64,000 nt of DNA. Origin: Lytechinus pictus (Eukaryota). Below are positions 6,161-62,574 of the stretch, one piece after another. Positions within the stretch are counted from its first letter, which is position 1, and the number at the start of each line of letters is the position of its first letter. A program made the translations under genes and the position numbers. The stretch lies in assembly GCF_037042905.1 (NCBI RefSeq), contig NC_087251.1, forward strand, positions 23,252,001 to 23,316,000, written 5' to 3'. The notes under the pieces were generated by a model, which was not told where the DNA came from, ran no database searches, and saw only the letters and a program-made list of their open reading frames with translations.

Positions 6161-6206
6161 ATCTAAACTATGTTTTAAATAACTTTTGCCTCAGTCAGGG
6201 AGTATA

Positions 6207-7892: not shown

Positions 7893-7894
7893 TA

Positions 7895-26258: not shown

Positions 26259-26289
26259 GTAACAGTATAAAAATGATAGAAAAATCTGA

Positions 26290-29345: not shown

Positions 29346-31645
29346 CACCCAGCATTTGGGTCCACTTGTGTTTACAGCCACAAAAGGCGGGCCTTGGGGC
29401 CAGTCTGAGACTACCTTCTGGAGGTGGTCTTGCTAACTCAAGTAATACTCATGCATTTTCTAATCAAAATTTAGGCCAGAGGCTGGCCTTTCACCCAATG
29501 TTTCAACTGGGTTAAAGAAAACAAAATGACAATCCAAAATAAATTTGTGTGAAGCAAGTTATCAGGTGAGGTACGGTACATTATTTCATGGAGGTAGAAA
29601 TCTACCTCCATGGTTATTTCGCCAAGTTGACTTATGAAAAGTTGTGTGTCAACATTACAAGATACGTTGTCTGGCCATGTCGATTTATAGAAAAAGTTCT
29701 GATGTCAACATGGCAAGATACATATCTCGCCAAGTAGGCTTATGAAAAGTTGTATGTAAACATGGTGAGATAATTATCTTGCCATGTTGACATATAAAGA
29801 GTAAGTGGTGAGATATACCCACATCATCCTGCATGTGGATATTGATCTGTAGCCAGCCACGCTTTTGCCTGGATTTGTTTTCAACGGGTTGTAGTGCTTG
29901 CATGCTGTGGATGTAAAATCGAATCCCACCATCTACTTATTATATGGTGAGGTAGCGTTTCATATACCTCGCCATGTTGACATATAACAATTTATATGTT
30001 GACTTGGGAATATAACATTTTTCAACATCTCCACAAGACGATGGCATAGCACTTTAAAGCTTCAATAGCAAATACAGACTGTTGTCTAAAAACAATCTAA
30101 AGTAAAATATAGTACAAGTGAAAATAATAATATTCATAATAATGATGATGATGGTGGTGGTGGTGGTGATGATGACAAAAATGATATTAATTAATATTGT
30201 CTTTTATTGGCAAATTGTCAAATCAAATTTGAGATACAGTGAGTATTAATGCATACACCCACCATACATGTACATTATTCATGATATCAGTTGCAAATAA
30301 AAATATATACTGTATATTGTTGACAAATGGCAATTTATCTATTTCGAATTTGAAATACAGTGTGTACAGTGCATTTTAATGCTTCCACCCACCATACAGT
30401 GTACATGAACATATCTTGAGATATGTACATGTGCATAGCATATCTCGAGATATGTTGTCTCAGTAGAAAGACCAGAGGCACTTGTTTATAGGTTAATTGT
30501 CTAAGAGTTAGACCATCCTGTGTACATTTGACGTAGGCTTATGTGGGAGGGGCGCTACTTTTTGGGTGGGGGATCAGAAACAATTGCCATTGAGAGACAA
30601 TGGACAAGTTATACCTGAATACATTGCTTTTACTGTAGCTAGCGATGAATAATTTTTCAATATACATGTAGCCAAACGTCACTCAAGGCCATGGCCTCCT
30701 GCAGGCTGCAGTCCTAATACGGGCGCAATGGTCTTTCCTTAATAATAAGCCATTAAAATTGCCCTGTATTTACTTGGCCATTTTGAATTTTGTCATACAT
30801 GTAAATGAGGTTTTAATAATTCAGCAATTTACTGTCTTGCCACTCCAAAATTGTACTTTGAAGACTGGAAGTTACATGTAGATGTGTAAGATGTATAAAT
30901 TCAGATCTGGCAATGAGTTATGCTGAAATTTTGACTGCACAATCAAGAATCCACCCATTTCCTTCAATGTAAGTTCAAGATCCAAAGACTTCCACAGAAA
31001 ACAATACAAAATAATGTCATAGCAATACATTCTTTGCATCAGTACAACTGTACAACTGGGAATAAAGTAAGTTTGATATTTAATGATTGATTTTTTGGTC
31101 TAAGTATGCAACATTCGTGTATACATGTACATGTATGTTTGTTCAACATACGATATGAAAGTTATTGTTGAAATGAGACAATGGCTGCTGACAATAATTA
31201 TTTGGAAAATACATTGTATGTTGTTGTACCCCTCCCCTTTGTACCTGGGAGTGTTATTCCTGCTTGCATAGTTGCTCCTCTGGAAATTTACACGTAGGTA
31301 TGGGTTTTAGGGGTCAGAATGATGTAGGAAGGATTGGGTTCGGGATTACATTTTACATTTGGCTTTGTGTGGATTTTCTTAGTAGGAGCAATAGTTGCAG
31401 GAGGAAATGTCATGGAACCAGTTATAAAAATGAAACAGAGTAGGGAATGACAAAATCAGAAAATTAGTTTTCTACCAATTCTCATGAAATTTAAAGATGG
31501 GCAAGATATATATTTTTTGCATGTGTTGGAAACTGTTGCCATGGTAATGGCATAGTGAGGGGGTATTAATCACCTTCAGTGATAGTTCTATTTTTTTTTT
31601 TTTTTTTTAATAAAGATTTTGATCTCATTATGACCTTATTCATAT

Positions 31646-32412
31646 GGGCAGTTCTACGGTTACGGAGTGACATCCAGAAACAAGTTTTTAGCGTTCAAAC
31701 AAAAATATCACCCATATTTAAATAGTTATTTGCAAAGAAATGGTACCTGACAGTAGTTGCTGAAACCCACTTTTCAAATTAATAACATTTGTTATTTTGA
31801 TCCACTGAATTAATGAGATATGAATATTCATAAACATGGTTACGGAGTGACTTAAAATAGACATGCATATTTGAGGAGAAAACTATTGCTCAAACTCTGT
31901 GAACTTTAAATGGCTATCACAATGTTGAGTTATTGAGTGGAATATATGTTGTTCTAGCTTTAATATGCTGCATTACATAAAAAATTTGGTGTATTTTTTC
32001 ATTAATTACAACTTAAAACATAAACCCATACCCGGTTACGGAGTGACATCTGAAATATTCACACACAGGCAACGTAAAATAAACTTATATTTTAAAACTT
32101 TCTTTTAAAATTATGTAAAATGATGACCTTCAGATTATCCAAAAGAAATTTTTACAAAACAAGCAATAGTTTTCTGTTAAATTGAAATTAAGTAAAAAAA
32201 AAACAATATATGTAGTCCCATACAATGTATAGAATTTTTGTATGGTTTGAATTCTCCTATAAGGAGATGCATGAGAAAAAAAATTGTGGCTAATTATGTT
32301 CCCCTTTTGTATTTATGAAATCTCATGAGTTTTGATAGAAAAATTTGATCCAGATTTGAAATAGAGCCAATATAAATTTTTGGAAAATGTCCACTTTTGC
32401 TTGGAATTGCCC
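31646..32412. mobile_element. Non-autonomous DNA element with short TIRs and ATAT flanks (Sola- or ISL2EU-like)
   Basis: ATAT|GGGCAGTTC ... GAATTGCCC|ATAT; GGTTACGGAGTGAC three times internally (about 31658, 31838, 32034). Confidence 0.65.
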
Positions 32413-32821
32413 ATATACCGGTACTCTAAAACATCTTGTTTACCGTTTTATTTTGAAATATCAAGCCTTAGATAACAACAGTAAGCCTACAATTAATATA
32501 CATGTACTGAATAAGAGAACAATTTCAACAACAATTACGTCATTGTACAAATGTAAAAACTTTCTGCTGGTGATAAAGTCATACCTGACAATGGGTCAAT
32601 TTTACCTAATAAACAGCACAAACATGCTATTTACTGTCCGTGGTCTTTGTGTTTACCCAGACTAGGTTGCGCTTAAATAGTGAATCCTAGAGCTGAACAA
32701 AAGAAGGAATGTGCTTATAACTGAAAGGTGAATTTGAGAGTTACAATATAAAGCAGTCTTGGTCCATTTGTAAAGCCTTTGTTCATCAAACTAGACAAGC
32801 TTGTTAATTTTGTTTTACAAG

Positions 32822-32904
32822 GTTGGGTGAGCAAAAACGTGTCTCATTCTTATCTCTATACTTTTGTGTATCCATTGATGTAGAATAGGGGGGTTCACAA
32901 AGAG
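32822..32904 (+). other. Possible non-coding 5' UTR exon of the formin gene
   Basis: T-rich tract plus AAG acceptor; strong donor GAG|GTAAGT. Confidence 0.35.
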
Positions 32905-33167
32905 GTAAGTATGACTTGGTTGTGTGCTGTATGAAAGGACTGTATCACCACATTGGTCATATCATGTGAAGAGGACGCACGCTACTACATCAATAAGATT
33001 GCACGTTACATATCGCATCACTGATAAGCATGACACATTTAATTCTTTTTTTAATCACCCTCCAGGGTCCGTAAAACAAAGCTTTACAATTTATCATGAC
33101 ACAGTTTTTTTTTTACAATCAATTTCAAGAACCACAATGCAAAATCAATTATATGATCAGTCCCTAA

Positions 33168-33331
33168 TCCCTCGGTCACATTTGCTCTACGGTGGCCGTA
33201 TGGTGAGTCGATAACAGCCGCTTTATTCATTTTTTTTTTCAAACCACCAATTTGTAGCTGGTGCAAAAAATGTTAAAACAGCTGTTTTCGACTTGCCGTA
33301 TGGCCGCCATAGAGCAAATGTGACCGAGGTA
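33168..33331. mobile_element. PIF/Harbinger-like MITE
   Basis: TAA|TCCCTCGGTCACATTTGCTCTA ... TAGAGCAAATGTGACCGAGGTA|TAA. Confidence 0.8.
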
Positions 33332-34204
33332 TAAGCTTTGTGTTATACAGGACCCAGAGAGAGACTGAAGTCTGACTTTTGCAAAAATTAAGATATATAT
33401 TTTGTTTTATTATGTACAACCAGAATGATTTTGAAATCAGTACCTAAACAATTACTTCGGTGATCCTGTATAATTTCTGATTATTGGTATTGCTATAAAC
33501 ATGTATTTACATTTAATTCATTCTTCTTTTGCCCTCCCCCCCCCCCCCCCCCCCCCTCTCACAGAAGCAGTGTGCATCATTGTTTTCCAAGATAATGACA
33601 TGTGGAGATCAATGAACAACAAATGAATGGAATCCCTGGATGGAACACTTGGACTTACTGCCCAGTGTAGAACGTCAAGACAAATTCATCCTCCCAATGA
33701 TGTCTAGTTACGACCAAGAAAAATATGTGTGATTGAGCTGAGAAATATCGCTTGTTATATAAAATGAGGTTTTTGGGCCTCTCTCTGGCTTGATGCTCTG
33801 TAGCCCTGTTGCTTGTACCCTGGCATTGTTATGTTCATGATAGAAATGGAAATTGCATTGAATAAGGTTTATGGATAAAAGGTGATTGGAATCATGTGAG
33901 CAGTTTTGTATAATGCAAATTGCCATGGGTGATTAGAATGGTAATCATTGAGATGAAATCAATCAGTTGGAATACCACAGCCGCAGTTGTTGGTTTGCTT
34001 GGCTGCTCACAAAGACGAGAAATAATAATCATAGAGAGCTGCTTTCATTTCCTCAGCTGAACTTGCTCTATTTACAACAGGAATGTCATTGAGGATTATG
34101 TTGAACTATGCAAGGAGAGGAAAGCTTATTCACTGTTTATCAGCAAGCAACGTCTTCGGGCATCAAATCTCCAAATATCTTACTGAGTAATTATTGGAAC
34201 AAAA

Positions 34205-35975
34205 ATGGAGAAGGGTCATAAATTTGTCATAAATGACAGTACTGGGTCCCATAAAACCAGTGGAAGTAGAGGCAATGGTGTCACAGAATATGGTGGAGGA
34301 AATACAGGAAAGGATCCTGGAGCTCTAACCTCACCTACCTCGCCCATGTCTGGTGGAGTAAGGACAGGAAATGGAAGGATGAACAGAATGCAAGCAGTAC
34401 GCACTGAGACCATTGAGGAGACAGTGTGCGTCTATGAGATCTCAAATCCAGGAAAAGACAATAATGCATTAGAGACAAGAAGAAAGTCTGAAACACTTTG
34501 TGCGGAGGTTTTGGCAAATGGTGCATTATCAAGGAGACGATCATCCAGTCCAAATACTGTTAGTGATATGCTGCAAGGCAGGAATAGAAGTGGTATCCCA
34601 TCACATACATCACATGGTATTAATTGGGATACTGCATTGCATCAAAATGAGAATAGTGGTTCTAACGGCCATTCTGGCCATGCTCAGCAAGCGGAAGAAG
34701 TTAATTTACCTGTAACATTTTTTAGGTCAGATTCACTTGTATCGAGTCCAGCAGACTTGACAACAACAGTATTAACTATGCAAGGTGGTCATGCGAAGAG
34801 TGGCAAAGATAATGGGAATGATTCTTTGGTAGCAGGTAAGAGCAGACACTCAACCCCTATGGATGGACTCTACAATATCAAATACAACCCTGCTTATAAA
34901 GAAGATGCTAGAACAATTATTGATGTTGATCCATCATCTCTAGGTAATTATAAACAGAATGGCCCTACGTGTGATCTTCTGAGAGGAGATCGATTGGAGC
35001 CTCCTACGTCCTTATTTCTGAAAGAGAAACTCTCTTTAATAGGCATGCAGGATAACACTCCTAGTGATATAGAATTCTATGATTGTCATTCACAACTTGG
35101 TGAACAAAGAGAAACTCCAGATCAAGAACTCTTTACTCCAGAAACTGACAGCAACTTGTTAAAACAAAGTGTGGACAATAATTACAGAAGCGATTTGTTA
35201 AGTTCTTCTGAAAGATGGCATACTGGAACAGAAGCTTCTGTCACTACACATCAAGCCATACACAATTCAGAAGAAGGTGATTTGAGTTTCATCAAGAAAA
35301 ATGGGCACACAAGACAGATGGATGGAGCTGAATTTACATCTCCACCCAATCCAGTTCGCATCCCAAGATTTCAGGAAGACCCAGGAAATTGTAAGGATCC
35401 AGAGCACATGAAGAATTCAAGAAATGGGAGTCCCGGTGCCATGGAAAGATTCAAGCACTTTCTTTCTTTTGGAGAGAAGGATCCGCCACAGGAAATGAAA
35501 GAGGCTCCATCTAGCTTCCCTGTGTCTTTCCCTTCTCTTCCAGACCTTTCAGCGTCCAACCAAGCTCTCAAATCCTTCAACTTTTCCCACGAGAAGTCCT
35601 ACCCATCACCTGAGAAGGGACGTCCAGCAATGACACCTAGTGAACGTGGAGAGAAGAGCTGGTGGAAGGATCCAACATATGGTTTCCCCTCTCCTGAGAT
35701 ATCTCTCAAGAGACCGCAGACACTCTTCAGGTTTAGTACTTGTACCTCCCCTTATGATAAAAATACAGAGACCCGAAAGACTCGTAGACGATCTACTGAG
35801 GTGCTTGTTGAGGGGTTATCCAGTCCATTGTCTGCCAGTGAAAGACTGCTCAGGTCACCAAGAACTCCAAGCAAACCAATGACTCCCAAGGAACCCTCAG
35901 CTTACGTTGCAGCCAGAGAGAAACAGGCGAAGCTGGATTTTAGGATTAACTTCAAGGACCAGGCAAACTTTACAG
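34205..35975 (+). CDS. FMN2: Formin coding exon 1 (long low-complexity N-terminus)
   Basis: 590-codon open frame; donor ACAG|GTATGT, phase 1; upstream acceptor uncertain (33564 or 34080). Confidence 0.8.
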
Positions 35976-38900
35976 GTATGTTTCCTGCATCTCATGAAAT
36001 TCTCTGTCAAGATTTAACATTTATTATTTGCCTGCTAGTCAATTCATTGCTTATGTAGGTAATATTCAATAGAAAATCATGATGGCCATCTGTGTTAACT
36101 TAGACCACACTTTTATGGAGTGCCAGTTGTCAACTCATTCAATAAAAATTATTCTTATTTGGCTGAAAAAAAGTTGAAAAATTGATTGAGTCATGAAGTA
36201 GGAAGAATTTGAAAGTTATGAAAATATCATTAATTTTAATGAATTAATTGATGCATTATTATTGCCATGAATGGGGAAGAAATATTATGAAGCCACAAGC
36301 ACTCCATAGAAGTGAGGTTTAAAATAGAGTTGAACCTAGGTTTAATCATTAATCATGTTTTACATTGCCATACTATGATTTATACATTTAAAAATCCTTA
36401 GAACTTAATTTTCTTTTCTCTCACCTCATTTCTTCCTGTTGATTTACATAGTTATATCAGAAGAATGTATCTCTTAATAGAATTTATGACATTCTGAATA
36501 ACGAAACATTAGATCTGTATGGTGTTTGTGATGATTTTGCAACAAAACACACTGTATTATTTATGTTTCCATGATTCGAACAAAATGCTTTCACATATGA
36601 TAGCATTAGCATATTACGTAACATTGAAGATACATACATGTACTGTAAGTTCTATACAAATGACTAACGATGCAAAACAGCATAACCTTCCATTGCGTAA
36701 TCAAGTTAGTTAGTAGCACAGCTTTACATTGATCGATTGATTTGCTGTGTACAATGTACTGTGCATGCTGCATAGTGCACCAAGCATGGTAAAATACTGA
36801 TTTAACTGCCATGAGCCAATTGGTATTAACGTATATGTTCACTTGTAATCACTTTGGAAATTATTGATTTTATACGAGTATTAGAACAATTAAGTAGTGT
36901 AGCTACATGTATAAAACGATTCGACTGACCTACATGTGCATGTACTATAACCACTTGGCCACCAAGTTATTTTATCCATTTATTTAAAGGGCAACCTGAC
37001 AGGAGTTTGTTGTTTGGTGTTGGTTTGTATTGGTTAAAAAACATGTGGGTACCACGTGTGATCATTAATTTCTCTATAGCTAGCAGATGTTTTTATATAC
37101 ATGTAGGAACAGATTTAAAGGGGAAGATCACCCTGACGAAAAAATTTATTGTAAAATTAGCAGAAAAACTGATTTAAATAAAATTGTTGAAGGTGTGAGA
37201 AAAATCCCTTAAAAATTAAGAAAGTTATTAGAATTTTAAGTTTTTTGCTCATCCGGCCCTTCGGGCCGGATGAGCTTATGCCGTGGCGTGGCGTACGTCG
37301 ACTGTTGTCCGTCCACAATTTCAAAATGCTTCTTCTTCGCCATTTCAAGTCCGATTTCAATTCTGTTTGCTTTATATGATAGCACTAGGTGGGGGATTCA
37401 AAACTTCTACACAGAATTTTGAAATTCATTAAATATGCTAATTTATGCGCATTTTTCAAAATTCACAAAAAATGCTTCTTTATTTGTTGACCAATTTTGA
37501 ATTTTTTGCTTCCATCTGGTAGAGCTTCATGAGGTACACCAAACTTCAACACAGAATTTTGAAATTTTGACTAGAACAATTTTTTTTGCTAATTTATGCA
37601 TATTTTTAAAAATTCACATAAAATGCTTCTTCTTTATTTGTTGACCGATTTTGATTGTTTTTTCCTTCCATCTGGTAGAGCTTCATGAGGTTCACCAAAC
37701 CTATACACAGAATTTTTAAATTTGGAGTAGAAAATTATTTATGCTAATTTATGCAAAATTCATAAATCACAGAAAATGCCTCTTTATTTATTGACTGAAT
37801 TTCAATATGCTTCTTCTTCGTCACTTCAAGTCTGATTTCAATTCTGTTTGCTTTATATGATAGCATTAGGTGGGGGATTCAAAACTTCTACACAGAATTT
37901 TGAAACTCATTAAATATGCTAATTTATGCGTATTTTTAAAAATTCACATAAAATGCTTCTTCTTCTTTAATTGTTGACCGATTTTGAATTTTTGTCTTCC
38001 ATCTGGTAGAACTTCATAGGTTCACCAAATTTTTACACAGAATTTTGAAATTTTCAGTAGAAACTTATTTATGCTAATTTATGTGAAATTTATTCATAAA
38101 TCACAGAAAATACCTCTTCTTTTTATTTGTTGACCGATTTTGATTTTTTTTCTTCCATCTGGTAGAGCTGCATGAGGTTCACCAAACTTGTACACGAAAT
38201 TTTGAAATTTTGTCTAGAAAATTATTTATGCTAATTTATGCAAAATTTATTCATAAATCACAAAAATGTTTTTTCTTCTTCATTTGTTGATCAATTTCAA
38301 TTTTGTTTGCTTTATATGATAGCTCAAGGTGGTGATACAAAATTTCAACACAGAATTTTGAAACTCATTAAATATGCTAATTTATTCATATATTTTCTAA
38401 ACTCACAAAAAATACTTATTTATTTGTTGATTGATTTTGATTATTTTTGTTCCATCTGAGAGCTACATGAGGTTCGCCAAGGTTCTACACAGAGTTAAGA
38501 AATTTTTACTAGAAAATTATTTGTGCTTACATACATGTAATTTATATGAAATTTATTCATAGATCAGTAATTTATATGAAATTTATTCATAGATCACAAA
38601 AAATGCTTCAATGTCATTTCTTCATCAATTTCAATTCTATATCCTCAATTTATGTCACCAATATAATTCACTACAGTGTCAACTGGGCTGAAATTAAAAT
38701 TGTGTTAAATTTTGTTGCGAGATGCCGGATGAGCTCCACATTATTGATGTTCTAGTTGATTTGTGTAGTCATAACAGAGCAGCTGCCCCATATGTTATGT
38801 AATATAGAATGCATAAATTTCTTCTTCTTTTTTTTTTGGGGGGGGTGCTCCAGAGCACCCCTGCTTCCCAGGGCCATGTTTTTACAATGAACTTTTTGTC

Positions 38901-41900
38901 AATGTCAGGGTGAACTTCTCTTTAAAGGCAGAGTCAACCCCTATATTAAGTTGAAAATAATGAACAGAGAAATCAAATTGCCATAACACTGAAAATTTCA
39001 TGAAATTACATGTAGATGTAAAATAAGAATAGCATTCAAAAAGTTTCATACAGTTGTATTTGTAGTTTACACCAATTTGTGTGTGGGGGGGGGGGTAAAT
39101 GGAAGTATACATGTAGGGCCTACATATGTAGATTGAATCTATAAGATCATCCAATAAATCTCTGACTCACCAAGATAATAATGGCAATATAATGATTTTC
39201 CAGGGTTGATGCTCTTTCATAGTGATAGTAGGTATATTCTCTGTTTTGTGAAGGCTGAGTGATCTTGCAGAATGATATCCATCATACATGCTATTTCACA
39301 TTCTCTTTAGTTTTCTTCCTCTCCCTCTTCCTCTTTCTCCTCCTTTTCCTCTTTCTCTTCAGTATTCTCCCTCTTCCTCCTCTCTCTCTCCTTCCCATGC
39401 TGATCCTCTATCTCCTTCACTTAGTTTTATTGAGGCACCCAAAGAACTCAAATAGCCAACAAGAAAGTATATCAGTTTGTTTGCTGAAAAAGGGGGTCTT
39501 TGCCATAATGTGATTTATTGTGGGGACTGAATCTGATTATAAAAAAATAAATTCATGTTCTTTTCATCATGGTGAAATTGCGCCAATTCAATTTTAATGC
39601 TAACATTTTCTCTGCGGGAGAGATTTCTTAATGCCATAATGGCACGAGGTCACATGCTGGGGAATGTTGAAAGGCCCTCTTGAAAGTCTCTCAAAACGAA
39701 TGCATTCCAGCATGGTTTCAAGAGGGATTTAAAATTTGGGGGTAAACTGACAATTGTTCAACCATGAATGGATTTGGAGTTTTACCAGAGTAATGTACAT
39801 TTAGGTTTATGTACCATGAAGGTTGTGATACAAGCATAATCTTGTACAGGGATGATGTTTTGAGATTAGAGGTGAAGAAGCACTATGCTGTAAAAAGCAA
39901 AATGTAAGATACATTTTAGGAATTTACATTGAAAATAATGAGTAACTTGGAAAAGCGATCTTCAGAACATACAGTACATGTAACTAAAAGAAGAATAAAT
40001 CATGATGTGAAATGTATTTAGTATTGGTTATTTTTCTCACACCTTTGTATTGTGTTTCTAATTTTTCTTACATCATGAAAATGAAAACATATCTGCTAAA
40101 TGAACAAAAAAAGGGGATGGGGTACTGTAATTCACTACATTGAGGTAGCACCTTTACCGAGGCTACAATCGGTAAAGGTGACGCCCCATGTCCCAATAAA
40201 TCAGTTGCAAAACAACACAATAACTTACTGGGTTTAATGTTGTTTGGGACAATGTATTAATTCATCTTGGGTAGTCAATTTTTATTGACTGTCTAATTGA
40301 AAACAGTATATTTTTCAGTCAGAACCATAATTTCAAGGATTAATTTTTTTTAACAGTATTTGCGTGTTCATGTGGCATCTCTACATAGTACATTTCAAAT
40401 TTACAAATATTTGATCAAGCCAACACTGGAACATTTGTGTAAAAGTAAACCATACCATTCCTCTTTAATATCGTTAATCCTTTGGATTAGCAAGTCATAC
40501 TTTTGGGTCGATTTATTAATAGTTTGAATATCATACTCCTCAATTAATCTGAGAGTTGATACAGTATGCAGGGTAATATGATAATGAAGCTTGGAGCTTT
40601 TCTCTACTCCCTAGGCCTCTGTAGTCTTTTCTAATGGTTAACCCATTGCCTATTTGACCCCTGAATAAAGCCTACATGTACACTGTATCTGGGATTAGAT
40701 ACATAAATGTATAGTCCAGTCCAGTAGTCCATTGGTTAATCCATTATATTTCAAATGTTAATTTATGTTGTTTTTAAGTTATCAAATTTGATAATGTGAA
40801 AAAAAATGTGTATTTACATGTACTTCCTTAACAAACTCATCAGTTTGGTCTCTCCTTTCTTTCCACCCTTTCTCCTTTCCCTTTTCCTCTCATCAGCTTT
40901 TGATCTTGAAGTCTGTGGATTTATAATGTCATCTTTAATATTTGGTGATTCAGATTTTTACATACATTTCCCCCATATTCATTTTGGGGGTAATTTTTGT
41001 GTATTGTTTGATGATCTGAATTCTGAAGTACAGCAACTGCATTTATGATGTGTTTATCATCAATCAGCAATGTTGTATGTATGGTTTTAGATTTCAAGTT
41101 GGTGAAATTAGATTATAATTCAGGGCCACCAGCTCTTGATATCAAATTATTAGAAGGTTATAAGCCCAGATTTGTTACATGTACATTGACATTTAGTCTC
41201 CTCGCAGATAGCACACTGCATGCTCACATTATTTCATCGTAGCATGAGAGAGATCAGATACCATTTTCAAGGGAACAGTATAGGCTACCAATACGAAGAT
41301 GAGAATGTTATGATCTTTAATTGTGGAATGGTTGATAATTCTCATGTATTGCCTTCCAGGTCGACGCCTCCTAGACTGGCTCTGTTCCTCTTCCTCCCTG
41401 CCGTGCTCATCACCTCCTTATCAGGAGGATGGGAGTGTGACAAGTCCATCTTCTATCTCTGAAAACCAGTCTGCTGCTCATCTCCTATGTACCAATCTCC
41501 TTGATATTGGTATCCTACAACCCCTTGAGAGTACATCAGGGACTGACATGTTTAAGGTAGGTTACTAAAGTCATAAGACAGCTTGAAACTTAGCTTCATT
41601 CTATTTTTGGTTTTTAGGTGTCAGAATAAAGTTTTCTTGCAGTGGTCTGTTGAGGTATGTAAATTGTATGCCTCAGTCATCATGCAGGATTCTGAAGAAA
41701 GCAAGTTTTTGTGGTACCGGTAACATTTTTTCCATGTCAGTGTTCTGAACCCCTAATGAAACAAGTTTAAGTGACTGCTACAGCAAAATACGTATTTGTG
41801 TACATACCTGCTCATAATTGTAATTGATTGTAAAACTTATACTGGTATACTTTTTTTTAAACCTTTCTCACACTTGATATATACAAATAAAAACCTTATT

Positions 41901-47900: not shown

Positions 47901-50900
47901 AGGATTTTTAGAAAGAAAATATGTACATGTAGGCAAAGAAAAACAAGAAAAAAGGGCATGTCAACTTTGAACTGGAATATGTACACTCACATTTAAGTAT
48001 TTTCTTCCATATTGGTTAATATTTTCATATAATTTAAATTCTTTATATTGGACATGTTTCATTGAGTTTACACTTTTTATATTCCATTCCCCCCCCCCCC
48101 CACACACACACACACTTTTGTTCAATTGCTAAAAAAATGTCATCTTTCATTCGAGGAAGCATGAAATATAGACAAGTTTTATTGACAATAGGAAAACAGA
48201 GACAAGGTTAAATCAATGAATTTATACACATCAACGTGGCAGTCACAATAGGTGTATTGATCTATTGTACTTGAACGTTCGTTCCCACATTCACCTTGTA
48301 TTGGTTATGTCTTGTCAAGACAAACTGGTACATCAAAATCAATATTACAGAAGTCACATTTGTGTAAATATTGCTTGAAAGGAGACTGGTTTTATTGACC
48401 AGGGAAAATAGAGAGTTTCCATATAATCAATGATTATGCTCATGAATACGATATGTATCATTAGGCCTGGAATTGCATGTACATGTAGAATACTTTTTTT
48501 TATTTGAAAACTCACCACCAATCTAAATTTAGAATTTCACCTGTATGTGTACTCTTAATGAATAGTTATATTCCAATGTGTCAACAGAAAAAAAATCCAT
48601 AGCAAAATTGATAATGATATTCAATCAAAATATACACTGTAGACATAATAGATTAAAAATCAACCAAACAATCATGTGTTTGAAAGAAAATATACCAGGT
48701 GGGTGTTTCATAAAGATGTTAGTAAGATAAGAGCGACTTTAAGAACGACTGGTGATCCTTTTTTTGGTAAATGGTAAACACCATTGGCGATAGTTTAGCG
48801 CGTAAGAAAGGTTCACCAGTCGTTCTTAAAGTCGCTTTTAACTTTTGAACAGCTTTATGAAACGGTCCCCTGATGAAGTAAACTATACTAGTTATGATTT
48901 GTTTTTTTCTTTTCATTTTTTTTTGTCTTGTATAATGTGCAATTTCATTGAACATTTTTTTTTTTCAGTCGGGTTATAATTGGTGGACAAGCAGACTATG
49001 TTTGATTTCACCTGAAAAAATATCTGTCCTTGTAGGAGTGTCCACATGATAATCTGAATTTATACACTCATTCTTTTCCCCTTCTCTCCAAAGATACAAT
49101 GCATTATGGTGTCCTGTTAAAAAAAAAAAAAAGAGGGAGAGAGTAATGATAGAAAGACCATGGGAGTTCAATTTGGAGACAGAGAACAAATACTGTGAAA
49201 TGGATTATAAGTGCAATTAGTACAAAGTTAGAAAAAAAATAGAGAATACAAACATTTTTACTTATACACTATTCAAAATCATATTGATGATAAATATTCA
49301 ACAATTATCTTTGTTGGGCATTCGGAAAAGCATAAAACAAAGAGAACAAATTAACAACAGGTGTTTTAGAACACATAATCATCCATACATATTAGCCAGT
49401 TGTAATCAGGGGGGGGGGGTGTTTGTTTTTACAAATCCATTTAAATGCTGAGGCTAATGAAGTTGACTGCCATATATTGATATGTGACCAAGTTACTATT
49501 GATCAGAGCAAGGCTGTGTACTTTCCCCAACAGCTCCAGCAAAGGACAACACAGCCTGAATTAGCTACTCTAATTTCCTGCATATACGATTACAAGACTG
49601 TTGTAGCGATCAAATGAGGATTCATGATATGAATACACGCACCAGCAGATGGTTGCGAGGCAGGGATTTTCAGAGCTCTGTGGTTATATTATGTGCGTCT
49701 GACATTTCACTATGATGGGATTATTTGATATAAGATTGTTATGATAATAGGGAATGTGCATCATGAGGGAGTTTATTTTGGCTATTAAGATATAATGTAA
49801 TTAAAACATGGTGCTTGTTTTGAGTGAGAATGACATATGTGGAGATGAGTAGAAATAAAAAATAGCTTACAAGAGTATGGTATGGTTGTACATGTAGACT
49901 TCAATTCTGAATATTGCATGTGACACAGGATTGTATTTCCTTCAGAGAGGGAAGGATAAAGAATGAGGAGAGGGAGAAAAAAAAAAGCACAAGACGGAGG
50001 GAATGAATCATTGTAGGTTAGCAGTGGCATATCTTTAGGTACATGTACATTTAGGGTAAAAAATCACCTAGGGCAAATGCTTAAATCTGTCACACAACAA
50101 TTGCTCCAGGCTTTATTTCGACTAAGATAAAGGGTTGAGTTACGGTTGCAATAGGGTTTCATATTAGGTTTAGGGTTAGGTTTAGGATAGTGTATTGTGT
50201 TAAATCCTTGATTTTCTTCTTTTTTTATACTTTTTTTGTCATTTCCCCCCCCCCCTTTGTCCAGCCCATTTACACCTCTGTATCTCAGAAATATAGGTTC
50301 AGATCGAGGTCAAGACTTTACACGCAATATTTTCGCCGTGCGAAATATTTTGACCGCGCCGCTTGCTGACTTTTTACTTTCAAGTCTTAAGCAACTTTTG
50401 AGACCAGTTTTCCGACACCAGGGTACGCGGTTCCGAAATTACGCAACATTATGTAGGTGCATGTCAGACAAAAAATTGTTCAAAAACGTGATTTCGTGTA
50501 CAAAGTGAATGCAAATTGTGTTTTCAACCAAAAATCATAAATGTATGATTATTTTTATTTTTACTGGTCTATTAAAATGTATGTATTTTATGCTGTTTAT
50601 GATCTCAGAAGAGTCCCCAACAAATTTCATTGAAAAAACAAAGAAAAACAAAAGGTCCAAAAACAAAGGAATACATAATAAATTGCAAAAAACAATATAA
50701 TGCATATGAAATTTATCTTATATCGCAATTTTTCTTCATGTACACTTGCTAAGAACACCACAAAGAGTTTTTATGCCAAAAATTTGAACATTTGGAGCTT
50801 TATTTAGGGAGTTAGAGGGAAAAGTATGATTTTGCTTACTAATTACGCACAAATTAGCATAATCACTTAATAGCAATTTGCATGAAATGAATTACTTTAC

Positions 50901-53900
50901 CATTTTGTAGATTATGTCCCAGACAACCTGTGTGCCAATTTTCAGCGCGGTTGCGTGGCCAACGGCCGGGTTTTTTAAGGGGGGGCCTGGGAGCCCCCCC
51001 CCTCCGGCTATATGAACTCCCAAAATACCCAGGTCTACATGTAGATAGGGTTAATACAGGCTTACATGTGATCTTGATGAAATTTGTGGCAATCTGGCCG
51101 TTTTTTTTAAATTTATTTATTCAAATCACTTTAGAAGGGCAATCTTGGGCTCTAAATTAAAAAACGATGAGAGAAGCGTAGCAGAATCGTAGAGAAAGAG
51201 AGAGTATGTGAGAGGGAGAAAGAGAGAAGGAGAAAACATCATGTTGTCCCTGTAAACAAAAATAAATTAATTTGAGTTTATTTTGAAGATTCAAAGCATG
51301 TATCATTCATTCTCTTACTATACTGGTAGGTGTATAACTGTATTAAAGATGGATGAATGCTACATGGTGAGAGAAATCAGAAACTTGCCTTAGGTTACTT
51401 ATGCATTTTATTTCTTTATGTTTTTCGATATTTTGGGTTAAAATGATAATTAATTGTGCCAATTTTTAGTGTATGATAAAAACAACATGATGATGTTAGT
51501 CATGTTACCAAGTTTCAAGAGCTAATAAAAGGAGAATGAATGTATAACTGTATATGAAGTGAAATCTTATGATTATTTCTTTGCAAGTAATCGTTTTTTT
51601 TTTGGTTATTTTTCAAGATGGAAGCAGCACAATCTTTTCCATTCACTGCTTTAGGATATATATTCTTTTTTTCATGAGTACATGTAGGTCTACAGTATGA
51701 GGTGCTTTTCATTATTAGCATTGTGATACAACATTAAAATGATACCTAACTGAAAGCAATTATTGTAGTTCACATTCCATGATTTGTGACCTCCAATTCC
51801 CTAGGAAGTCCTCTCCCATTTCAGATATTTGCTACCTTCTTTGATATTCAACCCAAACTACTCTTGTTGAAGATTGTAAACTTAAAACCTGTGAACTCCC
51901 AGAGAGTGTCAATTGGTGTTTTGTTATGAATCCATTTGAGGATCATTCACATACTATCGATTCCAACCACTGACCTGCTATTGAATTTGATCCCTCAACA
52001 AAGTAAATAGTATCGTCTGAATATGATGACAAATTGTTCTAGATAGCCCTCTTCAGATGGCTGTATAATGTAAGTCTACATGTAGTCTTTGGGTAGAAGT
52101 ACAGTTAAAAAGAATAAGGTCATCAGGAAAAGGGTCTTAAATACAAATCAGAAATATTAATTGTTTGTGGGGAACTTGAATGGAAATGTACAGATTATAG
52201 GAAATTTGAAAAATAACAGCACACCAGAGAGGGGATGGAAATGATGGAGTATATTTTTAAAAAAGAAGCAAAGTCATGAGGAAGTTTAATGACAAACCTA
52301 TCAATAGACCTACCAAGCGCTAACTCTGTTCAGTTTTCGTATTTATAACCAAATAACCATTCAATATGACATCTTACATATCTAATGTGAGATATATAAA
52401 GTGATATCGAGAGAAACAGTAAAGGAGACAATCAAATCCCCCCCCCCCTCAGAAAAAAAAAGGGGGGGAAACCTGGCTAAAAATTGAATTATCTCTTTTT
52501 CATTTGCGTACGATTCATATTTCATGCCCTATTTTGTCCAGGGTTTGTTAGTGACTGTGATGTGCTCTTTATACAGGCGAAAACATGTAAGGGGAAGGGA
52601 AAAAGCTATGTGTATCGGTGGAGGTCTTTGAGACGTGCAGTGCGGAGGTGGTTGTGGAGTCAATGAGACCCGAAGGTTAGGGTATTTGACTTATGTTTCA
52701 AGTCCCCATAGACTCAGCATTCTCTTCCCACTTTCTCTTATTTTCACAGAGCATCAGCAGTTGATCATGGGTCTGAAACGAGAGCACAAGGATGTTTTGG
52801 AGTGCTTGAAAGTAAGTCAGATTTTAACAGCACTTTTCATTCACTTTGAGTTTTAAGAATGTAATTCATTATAAATGGCCAGGTACAGGGTTTATCAAAT
52901 TGGAATACCTTTGTTAGTACCTCCTATCTTAATAATTTTAATTTGATTTCATTTATAAGGAAACGCAAACTGATGTGTGGTCTCTCATTGACTCTTTGTT
53001 ACAAATAGCTAGTCGTAAAATATGCCCTTTGAGATTACTATTAATAATGCAGAGATTGAATTATCTGATAATTTCATTTGCATAGAAACAATAAAATTTT
53101 CTGGGAAGAAAATTATTCAGTTTGCTACTTGTTGATATGATTATTACAGTATGAATGTATTTAGAGGTGAATAAGTGTGTGTTCATTCAAGTGGACCCAT
53201 ATAGAAGACTACATTGCTTATAATGTTGCATTATGGGTTTGGAAGGTGGCCAGATTTGAGGTGGTGCTATATAAGTCTACTTGTCTTATTTGTTTTTCTT
53301 TAAACTTTGACTTGCTCATAAATGTATGTTCCTTGTTTCTGTATTTCTCTCATTCTTTGTATAACCATTCTTGTGGTGGAAATCGGTTTATATAATTTTC
53401 TGCTCACATATGATGTTGGGCCTTGGGAGAATATACAGTGTTTACACACCAAATTTACTCAAGAAAAAAAAGATAGCGTGGCTATACCAGCATGGTATAT
53501 AGATTTATCTGTCTGATCATGAAAACAGATACGAACTAGGGTCAGAACATTGTTCCACCATAAAAGAATCATTCTTTTTATATATTTTATGTTTTATTAC
53601 TTATTTGCCACTTTAAACACATTCAATTTACGTTTATATTTAGTGTCCCTAGAATGAAATATACATCAGGGTTGGGCTTATATAAAACATAACTCTATGG
53701 ATGAGGGCCAGAAAGAACACTGTTTTTAAGTTGAGACATGTATGCTATACAATTAAGAAAAAAAAATGTTTGGAGTTTTTATAAAATGATCTGTATGGGC
53801 TATGGTTTGTTGTCAGATTGATTTTACAATGCATATCAACAATAAGTATGATATGATTTCACCATTATTGAATCATATGTTTACAGTAAGATGTAATTAC

Positions 53901-56900
53901 AGATGAATGTCTTATTTATGTTATTCTGCTGTATCAGTGATTTTATTTTTCTACTATTTGGTATCAGATCCCCTTTTTTCTGCACCTCTTTTATTTCTTT
54001 TGTATGTATTTGTTTGTCAAATAAAACATTTTTAAATGTAGTGTATTTTTGGGAGTTGATTACAAATTTGACAAGGGTAAATGTGATGAATGTATAATGA
54101 TAGGAAAACATTTTTAAAGACTGAATTGAATGACTTTAACTGCTTCATGTATTGTTTTTGTGGTTCTCAATCTTCCTTTTTTTACTTCCAGACTGAGCAT
54201 GAAATGTCAATCTTTGATGTAAGAGGACAACATGCAGCCCTAGTTTGTATGCTAGAAGATCAGTTATGTGATTTGAGAAAAAGAATTAAGGAACTAGAAG
54301 CTGAGCAATACAAATATACTAACAAACAATGTGTGGATGTTGCTGTTGAGACGGATAAGATAGAGATCAATCGGGAAGCCTTGCAGAGGCATATTGATAA
54401 GTTTGAGGAATTCCAACATGAGCAGGGGACGCAGGAGCACTCTCACAAAGCACAGAAGCCGTCAAAACATAAAGGACAGACAGGGTCGAACACTTTATCT
54501 CCTAATGAACTGCATCCATCAGCTGTGGCAGATATACCTCATGGTGCTGTGATCTCGCAGCCTCATCCTCCTCCACCACCTCCATTACCAGGGGCCATGC
54601 CAACCCCTCCACCTCCACCACCACCACCGCCTCTTGCCCTATCAGCACATACTGGTATGCCCCCTCCCCCAGCACCTCCACCATTACCAGGTGCCTTAGG
54701 ACATTCTTCACAACCACCTGCACCACCACCACCACCCTTTGGTGTACCAGGTGTTCCTGGAAAGGCTATGCTTATAACGCAGAAAGTACCAACTAAGCCT
54801 GTGATGGAACCGTCAGTGCCAATGAAACCACTCTACTGGAATAGAATTCAGCTCCACAAACTTGCCAGCCAACGAGGGAACAATATGTAAGCCCAGTTCT
54901 TAATAACAGTAGGCCTAGTCTCAATCAGTTCCTCTTACTTTATAAAAAGTCAGATGAATAAAAAAGATGTTGTTAGTTAGATGGATTGAATAATACTGGC
55001 ATCCTTATTATCTATAATGAGAGTCTGCAAGTGACAAAAGAATAATTGGGCTTACCAGTTACCACAAAGTCTGTTTTGCATGCAATTTTGATTGCCTAAG
55101 GCTTATTAACTGATTTAGTTTAGAATGTTTGATTCCAATTACAAGTCTAGATATTTCATGAAGTTCAATACAAAAATCATTATGACTTCTGACAACAATG
55201 ATTTATTACTCAAAATGACCTTTGATTACAATGATTTATAACTCAATTAGAATGACAATTTTCAGAATTTAAACTTGCTCTTTCTGGTATAGCCATTCAT
55301 TACTCACAATCAGTCATTATCTGTTGTTCACTACAATTTTTTTGTAATTTTATTATATAATAATATTATATTGAGGCAAATAAATCATCAGTGTAGTGAT
55401 GTAATAATGCTATTATTTATGTTTGTATGGATGCAATCATTAGGAAAGAAGCTGTTTGGATGGATATGAAGGAACCAGAGGTCACTCCAGAAGAACTTGA
55501 GGTACTCTTCAGCAAGAAACTAATGAAGAAAAAGAAACCACTGTCTGATAACTACAGCAAGCCTAAGGTCAAACAGGTATAGTTACTGGAAGATTGGATA
55601 ATAATGATATCTATTAATTAGTGTCATGATGAAGCTACGATTTCTAGGGGACTTACATGTAGCTTTGGATACAATGCAGTAATTTTGTGAGAAGACAAAG
55701 TACAACTAATTTTGTAAGAAGACAAACTTTGTGAGAAGACAAAGTAATCACACAATCAATGATATCTTGTAGTAAATTTCTCTTTTCTGTAAAATTTTTA
55801 ATAGAAATCAAATGAAAGTTATAATGTTGAAAAACAAAAGTTGTTTCAAAAAGCAGATTTAGAGTATTTTTATATATTTTTGTTTCATTTATTTTATTTC
55901 ATTTCCCCTCCCCCCCCCCCCCCCCCCGGGGGGGGGGAGGAAGAGAGGAGTACTTCTCCAGCCTCCAAGATGTCCTTGGAAATTTGGAAGTTCATGTTTC
56001 CATTCTGTGATATATAGGAGCACAAAACCTGATTCTTTTACATACATATTTATCATACATTTTTGTGTGTCAGTAAGGGTCATGGACTTTGAAGATGTGT
56101 GATAAAACAATCATGTTTCTTATCTTTCAGTCATTTTGTGATAAATTGTAGATTTGCCCATCAAACACCAGATGGTTTCTGCTCTTCATTGATCTCTCAA
56201 GTTAACAACTTTGTTCTATAGAGTCACGATGAACTTAATGTTTTCTTTACCTGGAGTAAACAATTGGAAATGTGTTAGTCTATGTTACTCCTTTTAAGCA
56301 CACTTGAAATAAGCACAAATATGGTTGCATGCATGTGATTAAATCAAAACTCATGTGCATTAAACACAGGTTTTGTTCACTTGCAAGTATTCAACATGAA
56401 TTTAGCCATATCATTTCGGTGTCATTGGAGAAAAAAATTACTCCCATTTCTCTCCATAATTAGATATTTGTTTTACAATGTGAAATCTTCAGTGCATGTC
56501 TTCAGTAATATGAATGCTGATGCTATCTTTCCTCAACTTTATATGAGATCACCTATGATATGATAGTTTATCCCATCATTTCCATTACTTGCTTATTAAT
56601 ATGTAAGTCTATTTGATGATGTGCAATTCATAATAAATTTATCTATGAAGAAATTGGTTTTATACAGTGCATTTCAGGGGAGCGTTTCATGAAAGGACTC
56701 GTCGGATGTTTTATCCGACAGTTACCATAGTAACAGTACCTCTCAGCCAATCAGAATCAGGGAAAGTTGTCAGAGTGACAACTTGTCGGACGAAAATGTT
56801 GATGAAATGCTCCCCAGACCTGTTAGGACTCTCAATGTGCTTTTGCAATATTTAAATAAGAACAGTGGAAATTAAATTAATATTACGTTTTAAACTTTTT

Positions 56901-59900
56901 GTGCGTTAACCTGTGATCCCCTCCCCCTTGTGTTGCATTATTGTATCAGCTCGCAGTAAACCCTTCTACGTTTTATAATACTCTGTAATTTTAGAGAACT
57001 ATAATTTTATCGGAACATTTTGAAAGGAAATGTTGTGAAGTAGCCTTGTAAAATGTTTTATGGGCTTTCTTGTCATGTATAGATTTTTTTGTAAACAAAT
57101 TTTCGGCATTACTCCTAGATGTGTTTAAGATCGCATGTTCGATCTGTAATGAAAATCAGAAAAAAAATTGGAACCAGTGGGATTCGAACCTGCCATCTAC
57201 TGCTTTCCGGGCAGCGACTTAACCACCAGGCTATTCTGGTTCACGGCTAAATCACAATGAACCGGAATTCAAATACCCTCGATCCTCTTCTTTCTGACTA
57301 ATTAATATGCAAATGCAGTCCGCCGTGGACAATAGATAGTAAATAGAGAGGCTTTAATAGGAGGAAATTATTTTAATTACAGACCGAACATGCGATCTTA
57401 AACACATACATGTAGGAGTAATGCCGAAAAATTTGTTTACAAATCATAATTTCCTCCTATTAAAGCCTCTCTATTTTCTATGTATAGATTTATTGGATTA
57501 CTGAGGTAAAAAACGAAACAAAACATAGATATTAGTTTAATTTTCTTTTTCTTCTTACCTTGCCGAACAAAACTTTGGCCTTGTTATCTTGGTTCTAGTG
57601 TCAGTGGCATGATTTGTTTGAATTCATGCCAAAATCATAATCTTACATAAAATACCCCTTTGAAAAGGAAAATAAAGTAAATCTCTGCCTAGTCAAAGAA
57701 CTCTGACAAAAGCACCTCTTTTTAATAGGTACCTTGCTTCATAACTCCTAACAATGAGCCTGACCATTGTATTGTTTGGGAGAAGGATTTTATTGATTTT
57801 CTCTTCTCTTTTTTTTGTCAATGAACTTCCTGGGTCTGCAGGAGGATGTATTGATTTTGTTTTATAATTTTAAAGAAGGTACAATAACTCTCCCATTTAG
57901 TGGTTTTTAATAGGGAAGTATGTGGTTGTGTAAAAATGTGAATGAAACATGTCTAAGGATGTGTATTGACGTGAACGAAACACACAAACAGTTAAACAAC
58001 ACCAACATTAATCAATCACACATGGTGATAAGGCATGGTGATAAGTATAAGGAATAATCTGAATGAATATTGATTCGTCCAGTTATCTTGAACAGTATTA
58101 GTCAGCTTTTAATCTTTTACTTGAGGTGACAAAAAATTGCAAAGTAAAAACTTTCAATTTGTCATTGGAAACGTTGCGACCTCATAGAATTATAAGTTTA
58201 TGCTATTGCAATTTTCAAAACTGTCTAATACTGCAGTTTATAATGATTGTAAGGGATTTCATGGCACAAGAGGAATTAACATACATGTGTATTTTTTTTT
58301 TTGACAGGTTGCGAAGTTGTTGGACAGCAAACGTTCTCAAGCTGTAGGTATATTCATGTCCAGTCTACATGTTGAGATGAGTGACATCAGACATGCTGTT
58401 CTTAATGTGGATATGTCCATTATTGATCTGGAGAATCTTCAGTCACTATATGAAATGGTAAGGCGAGAGAGTGGACCTAGCGGGATCCACCTTTGTATGA
58501 GGCTAATAAATTTTTTTGGTTGAGTTGATTTGCATTGAAGATAGGGTATCTAGGATTGTGGTCTAAATAGAAGTTTGCTTTGCTTTCATGAATGGACAGA
58601 ATGTTTGAATTTTTCTGAGCAATTTCAGTTTAATCATCATCTGAGCAATGTTTGTTTGTGTTTTGATCAAGTTTTAATTGCTTTATCATTCCAATACATT
58701 TCAAAGAGACTTTTGCAGAAATTTAGATTGAGTGCAACTTAATCAAAATCTAATGGTATTCATTAGGCAAACATAAGTCATAAATGTCTGTTTCTGACTG
58801 ATTAAACATCAAACTTAAAGATTCTTTGTGTTGGCTTTGTTTTAGGCAAGAGATGCTTTTGAATGATGCCTAAAACCAGAAATCCTTCAGCAACTGTATA
58901 AAATCCTGTTTTATTTATATAAATTCATATTCTCATTTTTGAACTAGTTTTATATTAAAAAAAAAGAAAATACAAGCGCAGAGCTGCCAAGTAGTACAGA
59001 TTTTCAGTAATTAGTACTGAAAAATAATGAGAATTCTGCTGGTCACATTCAGCATACTGATTTCAGTTTTACTATGTTGTCCTTTGTAATTTCTTTGAAA
59101 AAAGGCTGATTTCCTCCCCAAAATACTGATTTTCAGCTTTTACAATACTGAACTGTTTTTGTACAGGTTGGCAGCTCTGCAACCATTGATTTCTATTTGT
59201 GGGGTTATTTGTATTACAATCATCTTGTACTTGTTTGCTTTCAGAGACCTCAATCAGATGAGATCAAGATGATTAAAGAACACACAAAGAAAGATGGATC
59301 CAAACCACTTGACAAGCCTGAACAGTAAGCATACTGGAAAACTATTCTGGTATACAGTAAAACCTGCTTCAGTGGTCTCCTGTATATGAAGAGGATACCT
59401 GTCTATAAAGAACACATATTTTGATAACTTTTACAATATTGCCATATATACTAACAGTTTTATGCCACAAGGTCATAGGCCACAGAGGTTATTGTTTATC
59501 TTAATACTATGTTCAGAGAATGTCCATTTGACAAATTGACTGCCAACAGAGTGCACATGTACACTTGTACTATTTAGATGATTATTGGCAAATGTTGCCT
59601 CAAGGGGCATGTTGCCTTCATGCCCAAATAGCCAAGGTCACACAAGAAATTAATTATTTTGTTGGGTAAATTGATGTATTGATGGGATCACTGTTTTTAC
59701 ACAAATCAATATAATTGTAGTATTAATCTGTTTGCTTTAATTTCTTCATAAATTACTGAATAATCAATCATTAATTTCCTTACAATATATTTTTGTTTTC
59801 CATAAGGTTTCTGCTGGAGCTTTCTGAGATCCCAGACTTTGCAAATCGAGTCTTTTGTATCACATTCCAGTCAACATTTGAAGAGAATCTAATGGCTGTA

Positions 59901-61004: not shown

Positions 61005-62574
61005 GTAAGAGTTCTTTTCAGTTGTTTATTTCTTAAAGATTCAAATTCTTGTAGCTGTAGTCTACTGCTACAGAAAATTAATTCAATTTACATTTTTATT
61101 ATTATTAATAATGTGTTATTATGGTTATTGTCTTTTTAATTTACGTGATATGAGAAATAATCTTTCTTGTCATTACATCATAGCTATGATGGGGATCAGA
61201 TGTTCCCACAGTTGATATATCCCTCATCGTTTTCCCCTTCTTGTACAAGGAATCACTTTTGAATGTGTAGCATTTTAAGGGAAATTTTGATACAAATCAA
61301 TCAACCGAAGAAAACATAATTGTTTAATGTTTTCAATACTTCATCTACTCCTATTACTTCCAAAGTACCACTACCATTTCTCCTTCTAAGTTTACCTCTA
61401 CTTCTTATTGAAGACAGTCTCAACCTTTTGCATGTTGTACAAACCCAGCAGTAGATAATGAGCTATAACTTCTAACCAAGTGACAGAATGGAATATTAGA
61501 TTGAGTATTAGGTAGTTCTATATGAGAAAATAAAGTTGTATGTTATCATGTCCGCTATGTATAGGTTTGTTGTGTTGAAGCGCAGTGTACACAAATGATA
61601 CAATACACCAGGCCTGTAATACACATTTGGGTGTGGAATTCGTTCAGTTAAAATCTGCAGATAAAAAACACTAAAGTGAGACAAGAATAGAGGTCTTTAT
61701 GCAAAACACAAGTCTGTTTTTTTTTTAAACAGGAACAATGGTCCATCCATGCCTTGTCTGCGTGGATATAAATGAAAAATTGGAGCAAGATTGTGAAGTG
61801 ATGAAAATCATGCAGAATAATGATTTTCAGATTCCTCCCCCTCCCTCCATCCAAGAAAAGAAATAATTAGACTTTAATTCATCAACCTTTTTTCGACATG
61901 TTCGGTCAACTGTTGACATGAATTCAATTTGTTGTGTATTATTATTTATTGATTTAATATCAAAATATGTTTATACAGGATTGAATACTTGACAACAACA
62001 TATAAAAGATAGTAACTTATGTTTTACAAATATAATGAATTGAATACATTAAATCAGAAAATCTGTAATACAAATATTATTCAAAATAAAGTATTCAGAT
62101 TTCTGTAGGAAATAACTGAAATGAGAAAAGTAACCGTAAAATAGAAATTAAGTAGTACGATTACCATTGACATAACAAATAATTCCACTGAATTTATGAA
62201 GAAAATTAGTTACATGTAAATGAGAATAGTCGAGCATAAAATACTAGATAGTAATATTGCAGTCAAGTAGAAATTAAGGAATATAATTATCACTGAGTAT
62301 AACATATTGAGTAAATCAGTAGAAAAATCAATAAAATTAGTATCATTGAGCATAAAGTATTGGGAACTTAATTGCTTAAGGTATGAAATATATTATATGA
62401 ATATCAACAAATTATAACATATTGGATAACCCATATCATTAATACAAGTCAGAGAGAAACAAAAATGGATCAAAATGTATCTAATACTAACACTGGAACA
62501 CTGGAACTAACACTTTGCATTCTGGATATATTGGGGTATAGCATTCCATCAGTAAGCACCAAAAATATAAAAGA

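Follow-up and report, generated by a model that had tools for sequence, protein, structure and literature searches.

Why should one 8-base palindrome be scattered through a single sea-urchin gene and be missing from the DNA in front of it? The question was raised by a 64,000-nucleotide stretch of the Lytechinus pictus genome (assembly GCF_037042905.1, contig NC_087251.1, positions 23,252,001 to 23,316,000 of the forward strand; hereafter the window), in which an exact word count revealed 32 copies of the octamer, all within 30265-62218, a region that by its protein matches belongs to a formin (FH1/FH2) gene. The octamer is built as a TA, two bases that would represent the end of a transposable element, the reverse complement of those two bases and a second TA. 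The answer favoured here, with a probability of about 0.62, is that the octamers are young excision scars of a two-base-cutting transposon family of the Tc1/mariner type.

The original prediction, made from the letters of the window, had counted about 32 octamers by eye and had reported none in positions 1-30000 and none in coding exons. The exact count confirmed the number, extended the empty zone to 1-30264 and found 0 of the 32 copies in 3,492 coding bases mapped by tblastn, where 3.5 were expected (P=0.025). Markov models of 29501-64000 with the motif left in predicted 1.1, 2.3, 3.3 and 6.5 copies for orders 1 to 4, respectively, and 1.8-2.1 copies when the motif was masked. The split of 32 versus 0 at 30264/30265 has p=1.3e-9. 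As only 0.94 copies were expected upstream of 30265, the zero observed there is at chance level and the anomaly lies in the gene body. Among the 256 words that share the four-base core, the octamer has 32 copies and each of the other 255 at most 6, showing that the enrichment is specific to the TA flanks of this core; equal enrichment of the same-core words, which the prediction had named as an outcome that would speak against it, was therefore not found. The spacing of the copies is near random (coefficient of variation 1.17).

The host gene was identified through its proline-rich exon, which matches sea-urchin formins (93% to Lytechinus variegatus and 79% to Strongylocentrotus purpuratus), and through ten coding exons on the forward strand between 34205 and 61006, each 92-100% identical to the L. 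variegatus protein P0001. Pfam returned no family in the two formin exons scanned, so that the name rests on the protein matches, and residues beyond about 1141 of the 1367-residue relative were not found in the window, where the gene is incomplete. Seven octamers (30265-32499) lie upstream of the first coding exon, which starts at 34205. A polypyrimidine tract plus AG at about 33515-33565 suggests a 5'-untranslated intron that would hold these seven. Thus, the claim that the octamers are confined to formin introns stands insofar as none is coding, whereas for 7 of the 32 the intron is a putative one. Just upstream of the CpG-poor zone described below, 23500-27500 is CpG-rich (observed/expected ratio, o/e, of 0.7-1.0 in parts) and consists partly of young repeats; the formin promoter could lie there.

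The state of individual sites before the octamer was assayed with read contigs from four of 11 runs over 38900-57600, an interval that spans 20 of the 32 sites (runs X1 and X5, in which a small share of the sequence words was present, served for these contigs alone); the comparison covers the best-supported 12 of 610 gap rows and 15 of 575 joints, all from repeats. An empty state was visible at 3 of the 32 sites, and all three are insertions. At 57407, contigs of the same repeat family lack exactly six bases and retain a bare TA in all four runs (3, 1, 8 and 5 contigs), and this gap accounts for the majority of the depth in three of them; these contigs are paralogous family copies of the repeat. 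The prediction had placed the octamer in one arm only of an inverted pair at this position. The insertion was confirmed, as a true +6 relative to the other family copies, whereas direct comparison of the two arms gives +4 plus a mismatch because a separate +2 is present in the inverted partner at this TA (57117). Both inverted copies bear insertions at one TA (+2 at 57117 and +6 at 57407), which suggests an insertion hot spot within this repeat family.

The small insertion predicted at 38532 in a repeat unit also proved to be an insertion at TA when aligned with three of three sister units, although of 11 bases and not of 6; a single additional T, a +4 remnant and a +6 scar would together make up this length. 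The third site, 39007, shows scattered gaps in its family, the best three of which (33, 28 and 38 contigs in run X1) sum to 5. In public collections, an 18-base flank of the 39007 repeat matched 119 loci (118 from metagenomes and 1 viral), none of which continued like the window. No empty copy of the 51036 site appeared among the best-supported contig rows, and inside the window empty copies were seen for 2 of the 32 sites. With three sites of 32 and one clean +6, the octamer appears to behave as an insertion at TA and not as a product of substitution. The other outcome that the prediction had named against itself, substitution from CpG-containing words in place of insertions or deletions, was thus seen at none of the testable sites.

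The fine structure of the sites was also analysed in non-coding gene-body DNA after masking. Variants with one extra base exactly at the centre of the octamer were found 8 times versus 1.87 expected (p=7e-4) and those with two extra central bases 7 times versus 1.89 (p=0.003). Off-centre one-base variants remained at expectation (5 versus 5.27), and the other six two-base positions held 1-4 copies versus 1.2-1.4 expected (highest, p=0.043). Upstream DNA had no excess of either central class (1 versus 0.89 and 1 versus 0.99). Variation is therefore concentrated at what would be the repair junction between two end remnants, and since the excess of centre variants (about 11) is larger than that of single substitutions (about 7), they are unlikely to be decay products. 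In a local duplication, one copy has the octamer (30265) and the other a centre-extended form (30395).

Octamers also adjoin further candidate remnants. Another possible element-end remnant closed by TA was found next to 8 of 64 octamer sides compared to 124 of 5064 plain TA sides (p=1.7e-4), and to 6 of 64 when the tandem pair was left out (p=0.005). The two octamers that share one TA at 31122 may represent two successive +6 events. Together with the remnants beside them, two of the octamers make up an inverted pair, 36635-36658 and 39959-39982, which matches at 20 of 24 bases over a distance of 3.3 kb without further extension and encloses a tandem repeat (37317-38566); these are probably two similar scar stacks and, less probably, an old element end. 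Regarding the target, A at -3 together with T at +3 was found at 9 of 32 octamers versus a background of 11% (p=0.007), and the transposons Sleeping Beauty (SB) and ZB are described as preferring a palindromic AT target with these same two bases (PMC7913693).

The octamer has an exact precedent. Excision of Tc1/mariner elements is reported to leave two- or three-base 3' overhangs, and end joining keeps the terminal bases between the duplicated TA (PMC3878927, PMC6943129). At unc-22 of C. elegans, Tc1 leaves non-complementary overhangs of two bases, and the octamer is identical to footprint class 'L' at unc-22(st192) (van Schendel et al. 2015, PMC4490562). According to the same source, this product made up 24 of 103 in-frame germ-line revertants of repair-proficient animals (Supplementary Data 3), 10 of 36 in lig-4 and 3 of 39 in polq-1, a mutant with a more than 20-fold drop in the overall number of events; precise excision accounted for 25 of 103, and inserts exactly between the overhangs for 17 of 103. 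As the assay detects in-frame products only, these shares overstate the +6 class. The likeness extends to the gain of six bases over an empty TA and to the central position of extra bases. In contrast, class L is one of 26 products at one site, whereas here a single product dominates natural non-coding DNA at about one per kb, is confined to a gene body and has a one-sided flank. SB, Frog Prince and ZB share the TA duplication, the retained terminal bases and A at -3 with T at +3 (PMC6943129, PMC3878927, PMC7913693), but their overhangs of three bases lead to a 7-base footprint, a word only weakly enriched here (12 versus 7.8), and their targets are AT-rich at +1, where the urchin sites favour G/C. 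The footprint itself was thus already known from Tc1.

In the favoured reading, a transposase would be the maker of these octamers. The donor would be a TA-targeting DNA transposon of the Tc1/mariner type with CA..TG ends, cut two bases inside each end. Its insertion would duplicate the TA, and its excision would leave, next to the TA on each flank, a 3' overhang of two bases that is not complementary to its counterpart. If the host joined these ends with both overhangs kept, a +6 scar would result, sometimes with one or two extra junction bases, and the new TAs could be used again to give stacked scars. A chromatin-linked bias in insertion, excision or repair would gather the scars in the transcribed gene body. 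For this confinement, an insertion bias is the leading but tentative candidate, followed by a possible bias in excision or repair; selection that removes whole elements from introns but spares the scar is doubtful, and some other cause would be less probable still. The excision-scar idea of the original prediction retains the apparent insertion at TA, the end-joining fine structure and the identical Tc1 footprint in its favour, whereas the 'targeting' of the gene body that it proposed becomes one of several possible biases. Membership in the Tc1 footprint class is unproven, since no filled allele was seen in the contig rows and no transposase in the local elements.

As had been predicted, elements with TA-flanked CA..TG ends do occur in the window, as two foldback elements at 6205-8656, and the octamer corresponds exactly to their duplicated TA combined with the last two bases at either end. 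They are not supported as the source of the scars, being non-coding, located in the scar-free zone and without relatives in the formin gene body. They also lack the inverted-repeat/direct-repeat (IR/DR) structure, the best inner match to their outer 16-mers being 9-12 of 16.

The octamers are apparently young. Their one-substitution neighbours number 39 versus 32.1 expected (95% interval 27.7-53.3), so that an excess of about 30 perfect copies stands beside a neighbour excess of about 7, a ratio of 0.23 (upper bound about 0.7) compared to 1.14 at neutral steady state. Under accumulation at a constant rate, this would correspond to an age near 0.06 substitutions per site, with about 0.25 as the maximum. 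Two octamers lie in repeats with CpG o/e of 0.89 and 1.02 inside the CpG-depleted gene body, and such high-CpG host repeats also suggest youth. The low neighbour ratio is not a proof of it, because selection on the word would give an equal ratio.

Several observations weigh against excision scars. On the sense strand, a G or C is found 3' of the octamer at 26 of 32 copies and 5' of it at 13 of 32, against plain TA backgrounds of 0.34 and 0.31 (discordant pairs 16 versus 3, p=0.004, post hoc), and the seven upstream octamers show the same one-sided flank. A symmetric transposase dimer, blind to the direction of transcription, would not predict it. Whereas SB and ZB are reported to favour AT at +1 (PMC7913693), the T expected there from the ATATATAT consensus is depleted (14 of 64 versus 36%). 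Avoidance of cryptic splice donors was considered as a cause of the flank bias and seems less likely, as the base after plain intronic words that end like the octamer differs only slightly between sense and antisense. The spectrum of products is another difficulty: the +4 footprint word has no excess (50 versus 49), the SB-type word of three end bases has little, the central extra bases match CAGT ends at chance level (5 of 16, read by eye), and known excision spectra are mixed, with 26 products in 103 worms (PMC4490562) and 8 perfect events of 94 in rice (PMC4423477).

To these must be added points regarding donors and sites. Of the 20 covered octamer sites, 2 are represented among the best-supported contig rows, both by paralogous copies, and none of the best-supported 12 of 610 gaps and 15 of 575 joints has an element at an octamer. 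Intact TA-flanked CA..TG elements are present only at 6205-8656, where scars are missing, and these hold no transposase reading frame of at least 100 amino acids. At 39007 the insertion looks like +5 at a CpG instead of +6 at a TA; the family site would be CpG if the three best gaps co-occur in one contig.

Methylation was examined as the cue, since the original prediction had proposed traffic targeted to a transcribed or methylated gene body. The CpG o/e is 0.33 in 30001-64000 versus 0.67 upstream, the pattern that would be expected from gene-body methylation, which in invertebrates is reported to fall mostly on introns (PMC8857917). Octamer presence is not predicted by CpG depletion, a further point against the scars: none was found in 9 CpG-poor upstream kb (most of them inside repeats), 28 in 29 CpG-poor kb of the gene body and 4 in 5 CpG-richer kb. 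The best CpG change point, at 26.5 kb, lies 3.8 kb ahead of the first octamer, and local CpG loss around octamers does not differ from that at plain TA sites (0.328 versus 0.333). Methylation as the cue is accordingly not supported. Methylation is reported to raise excision of the IR/DR elements SB, Frog Prince and Minos (Jursch et al. 2013, PMC3680223), which would offer a route to scars inside methylated gene bodies with elements outside. In contrast to these systems, the local elements lack IR/DR and the CpG-poor upstream DNA lacks scars, and in the same source the boost does not extend to Himar1, Hsmar1 or the two-base cutter Tc1, which also counts against the proposed family.

The main rival is a transposon-free, transcription-coupled insertion process, in which a break or lesion at a TA followed by sense-strand G/C, or at a methylated CpG, would be repaired by polymerase-theta-like fold-back or templated repair to a fixed product. 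It would account for a flank that follows the direction of transcription, also at the seven upstream sites, for the restriction of the octamers to the transcription unit, with none in the CpG-poor DNA upstream, for a family site at 39007 that may be CpG with a net +5, for the near absence of other footprint classes, and for the lack of a donor family among the window elements examined. This rival is nevertheless unlikely, as the insert at 57407 does not repeat its flanking sequence, the octamers are no CpG-poorer locally than plain TA sites, and no host enzyme is known to write a fixed four-base core at TA. In addition, the stacking with 3- and 5-base end remnants and the exact Tc1 precedent (PMC4490562) point to transposon ends.

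An improbable alternative is that the octamer, whatever its first origin, is a protein- or RNA-binding site under selection in introns. Purifying selection would also produce perfect copies far in excess of one-substitution neighbours, and RNA-level selection could be reflected in the strand bias. However, the octamers interrupt young repeats at arbitrary places with near-random spacing, the centre-extended variants, which would break a site, are enriched too, and the strand difference in plain intronic words with an octamer-like end is slight.

Much less probable is a methylation-linked substitution ratchet that turns near-matches into the palindrome, as modelled for cyanobacterial HIP1, which is described as arising by substitution through mismatch repair in connection with DNA methylation (Elhai 2015, PMC4390886). 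The existence of that model, a single 8-base palindrome far above expectation, the few near-matches relative to perfect copies and 3 CpG-bearing near-matches in the gene body versus 0.44 expected (local order-2 model) are in its favour. Unlike HIP1, the urchin octamer arises by insertion, with length changes at all three sites whose empty state is visible, and avoids coding exons, as fits a length change; nor are the near-matches depleted (39 versus 32). Finally, simple loss of CpG from precursor words in methylated DNA, although compatible with the fall in CpG o/e and with 3 single-CpG precursors in the gene body, is refuted for practical purposes, since full decay of all three precursor words has a ceiling of 2.95 copies versus 32 (P of at least 32 copies, 2e-22), the same-core sister words are not raised and the testable sites are insertions.

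The features on which this analysis is based are collected in the table.

Table. Positions of the octamers, their variants and the associated features in the window
Feature	Position	Strand	Remarks
Octamer starts	30265, 30663, 30796, 30873, 31122, 31128, 32499, 36635, 36904, 37098, 38532		
Octamer starts, continued	39007, 39108, 39975, 40673, 40815, 41176, 43911, 45582, 46779, 46843, 47704		
Octamer starts, continued	47924, 48480, 49889, 50040, 51036, 51679, 52077, 55654, 57407, 62211		
Field of 32 octamers	30265..62218	none	non-coding throughout, about 1 per kb
Clean +6 insertion at TA in dispersed repeat	57407..57414	none	read contigs
Inverted copy of the 57407 repeat	57088..57156	+	+2 at the same TA (57117), no octamer; 7, 7, 23 and 30 contigs without the 2 bases
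+11 insertion at TA in one unit of tandem repeat	38527..38539	none	missing from the 3 sister units aligned
Octamer in dispersed repeat, other copies about 5 bases shorter	39007..39014	none	gap rows 39006-39013
Octamer near TTAA-bounded end of CpG-rich high-copy repeat	51036..51043	none	repeat about 50270-51055, CpG o/e 0.89
Centre-extended variants, one extra base	30395, 31210, 32221, 36750, 40679, 45820, 46505, 47174, 48633		both classes together: 16 variants in 30395..59570
Centre-extended variants, two extra bases	31043, 32546, 39049, 39121, 46497, 58282, 59560		
Two octamers sharing one TA	31122..31135	none	word positions
Stack of three footprint-like units sharing TAs	36631..36647	none	2-, 4- and 3-base remnants
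Octamer with adjoining 3-base (Sleeping-Beauty-type) remnant	39970..39982	none	
Octamer with adjoining 5-base remnant	40673..40689	none	
Formin coding exons	34205-35977, 41359-41559, 43069-43233, 52749-52811, 54189-54887	+	tblastn
Formin coding exons, continued	55445-55594, 58305-58457, 59245-59325, 59805-59936, 60932-61006	+	tblastn
Two nested/adjacent non-coding TA-flanked foldback elements	6205..8656 (6207-7892, 7895-8654)	none	CAGTG..CACTG ends, one shared TA

Other features were detected in the window. Within the gene, 48696-48872, 52434 and 56668-56870 are intronic copies of very high-copy short palindromic elements, whose summed contig depth reaches several thousand times single-copy; none of those at these positions has TA-flanked CA..TG ends. 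A 67-base tandem array of 4.7 copies, 97% alike, lies at 62562-62890. In the scar-free zone, the RNase H end of a non-LTR (long terminal repeat) retrotransposon is present as a tandem pair with 99% identity (335-1847 and 2173-3692), either a recent duplication or an assembly artefact, and 3820-5082 (+ strand) is a single-exon reading frame for a rhodopsin-family G-protein-coupled receptor (Pfam 7tm_1, E=1.6e-30). At 19011-23807 there is a 4.8-kb foldback element with arms of about 1 kb that are 94-99% complementary, internal 161-base tandem units, a CpG o/e of 0.30 and no octamer. Upstream, another TA-bounded 8-mer ranks first among the non-simple palindromes (458-25918; 8 copies versus 0.33 expected); 2 copies of it lie in the gene body, and 5 of the 8 upstream ones fall within duplications or repeats.

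Subscription papers and bioRxiv supplements aside, the literature search found no published account of the genome-scale build-up, density, confinement or one-sided flank of this footprint, and the parts seen of PMC5521727 and of bioRxiv 10.64898/2026.06.05.730382 contained nothing on its sequence. The present analysis contributes the tests of the central junction and of stacking, a bound on the age, the polarity and the match to an exact Tc1 precedent.

As a rule, excisions go unseen or leave messy products, which makes the rates and positions of cut-and-paste transposition hard to measure in wild genomes; with a uniform scar once per kb of intron, a single assembly would suffice to count them. 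Provided that the age estimate is right, the scars would be a measurable source of intron indels, at about one per 50-100 substitutions. Their confinement and polarity would make the link between chromatin, transposons and germ-line break repair directly testable. A bolder and unlikely generalization is that insertion coupled to transcription places one and the same palindrome in the gene bodies of marine invertebrates, at about 1-2% of the point-mutation rate and with a polarity set by transcription. Such a process would be either Tc1-type hit-and-run traffic that reads gene-body chromatin, under guidance from RNA polymerase II or the replication fork, or transposon-free host repair, perhaps at methylated CpG. 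If true, either of these transcription-coupled readings would make the octamer a sequence-readable record of germ-line transcription or chromatin state.

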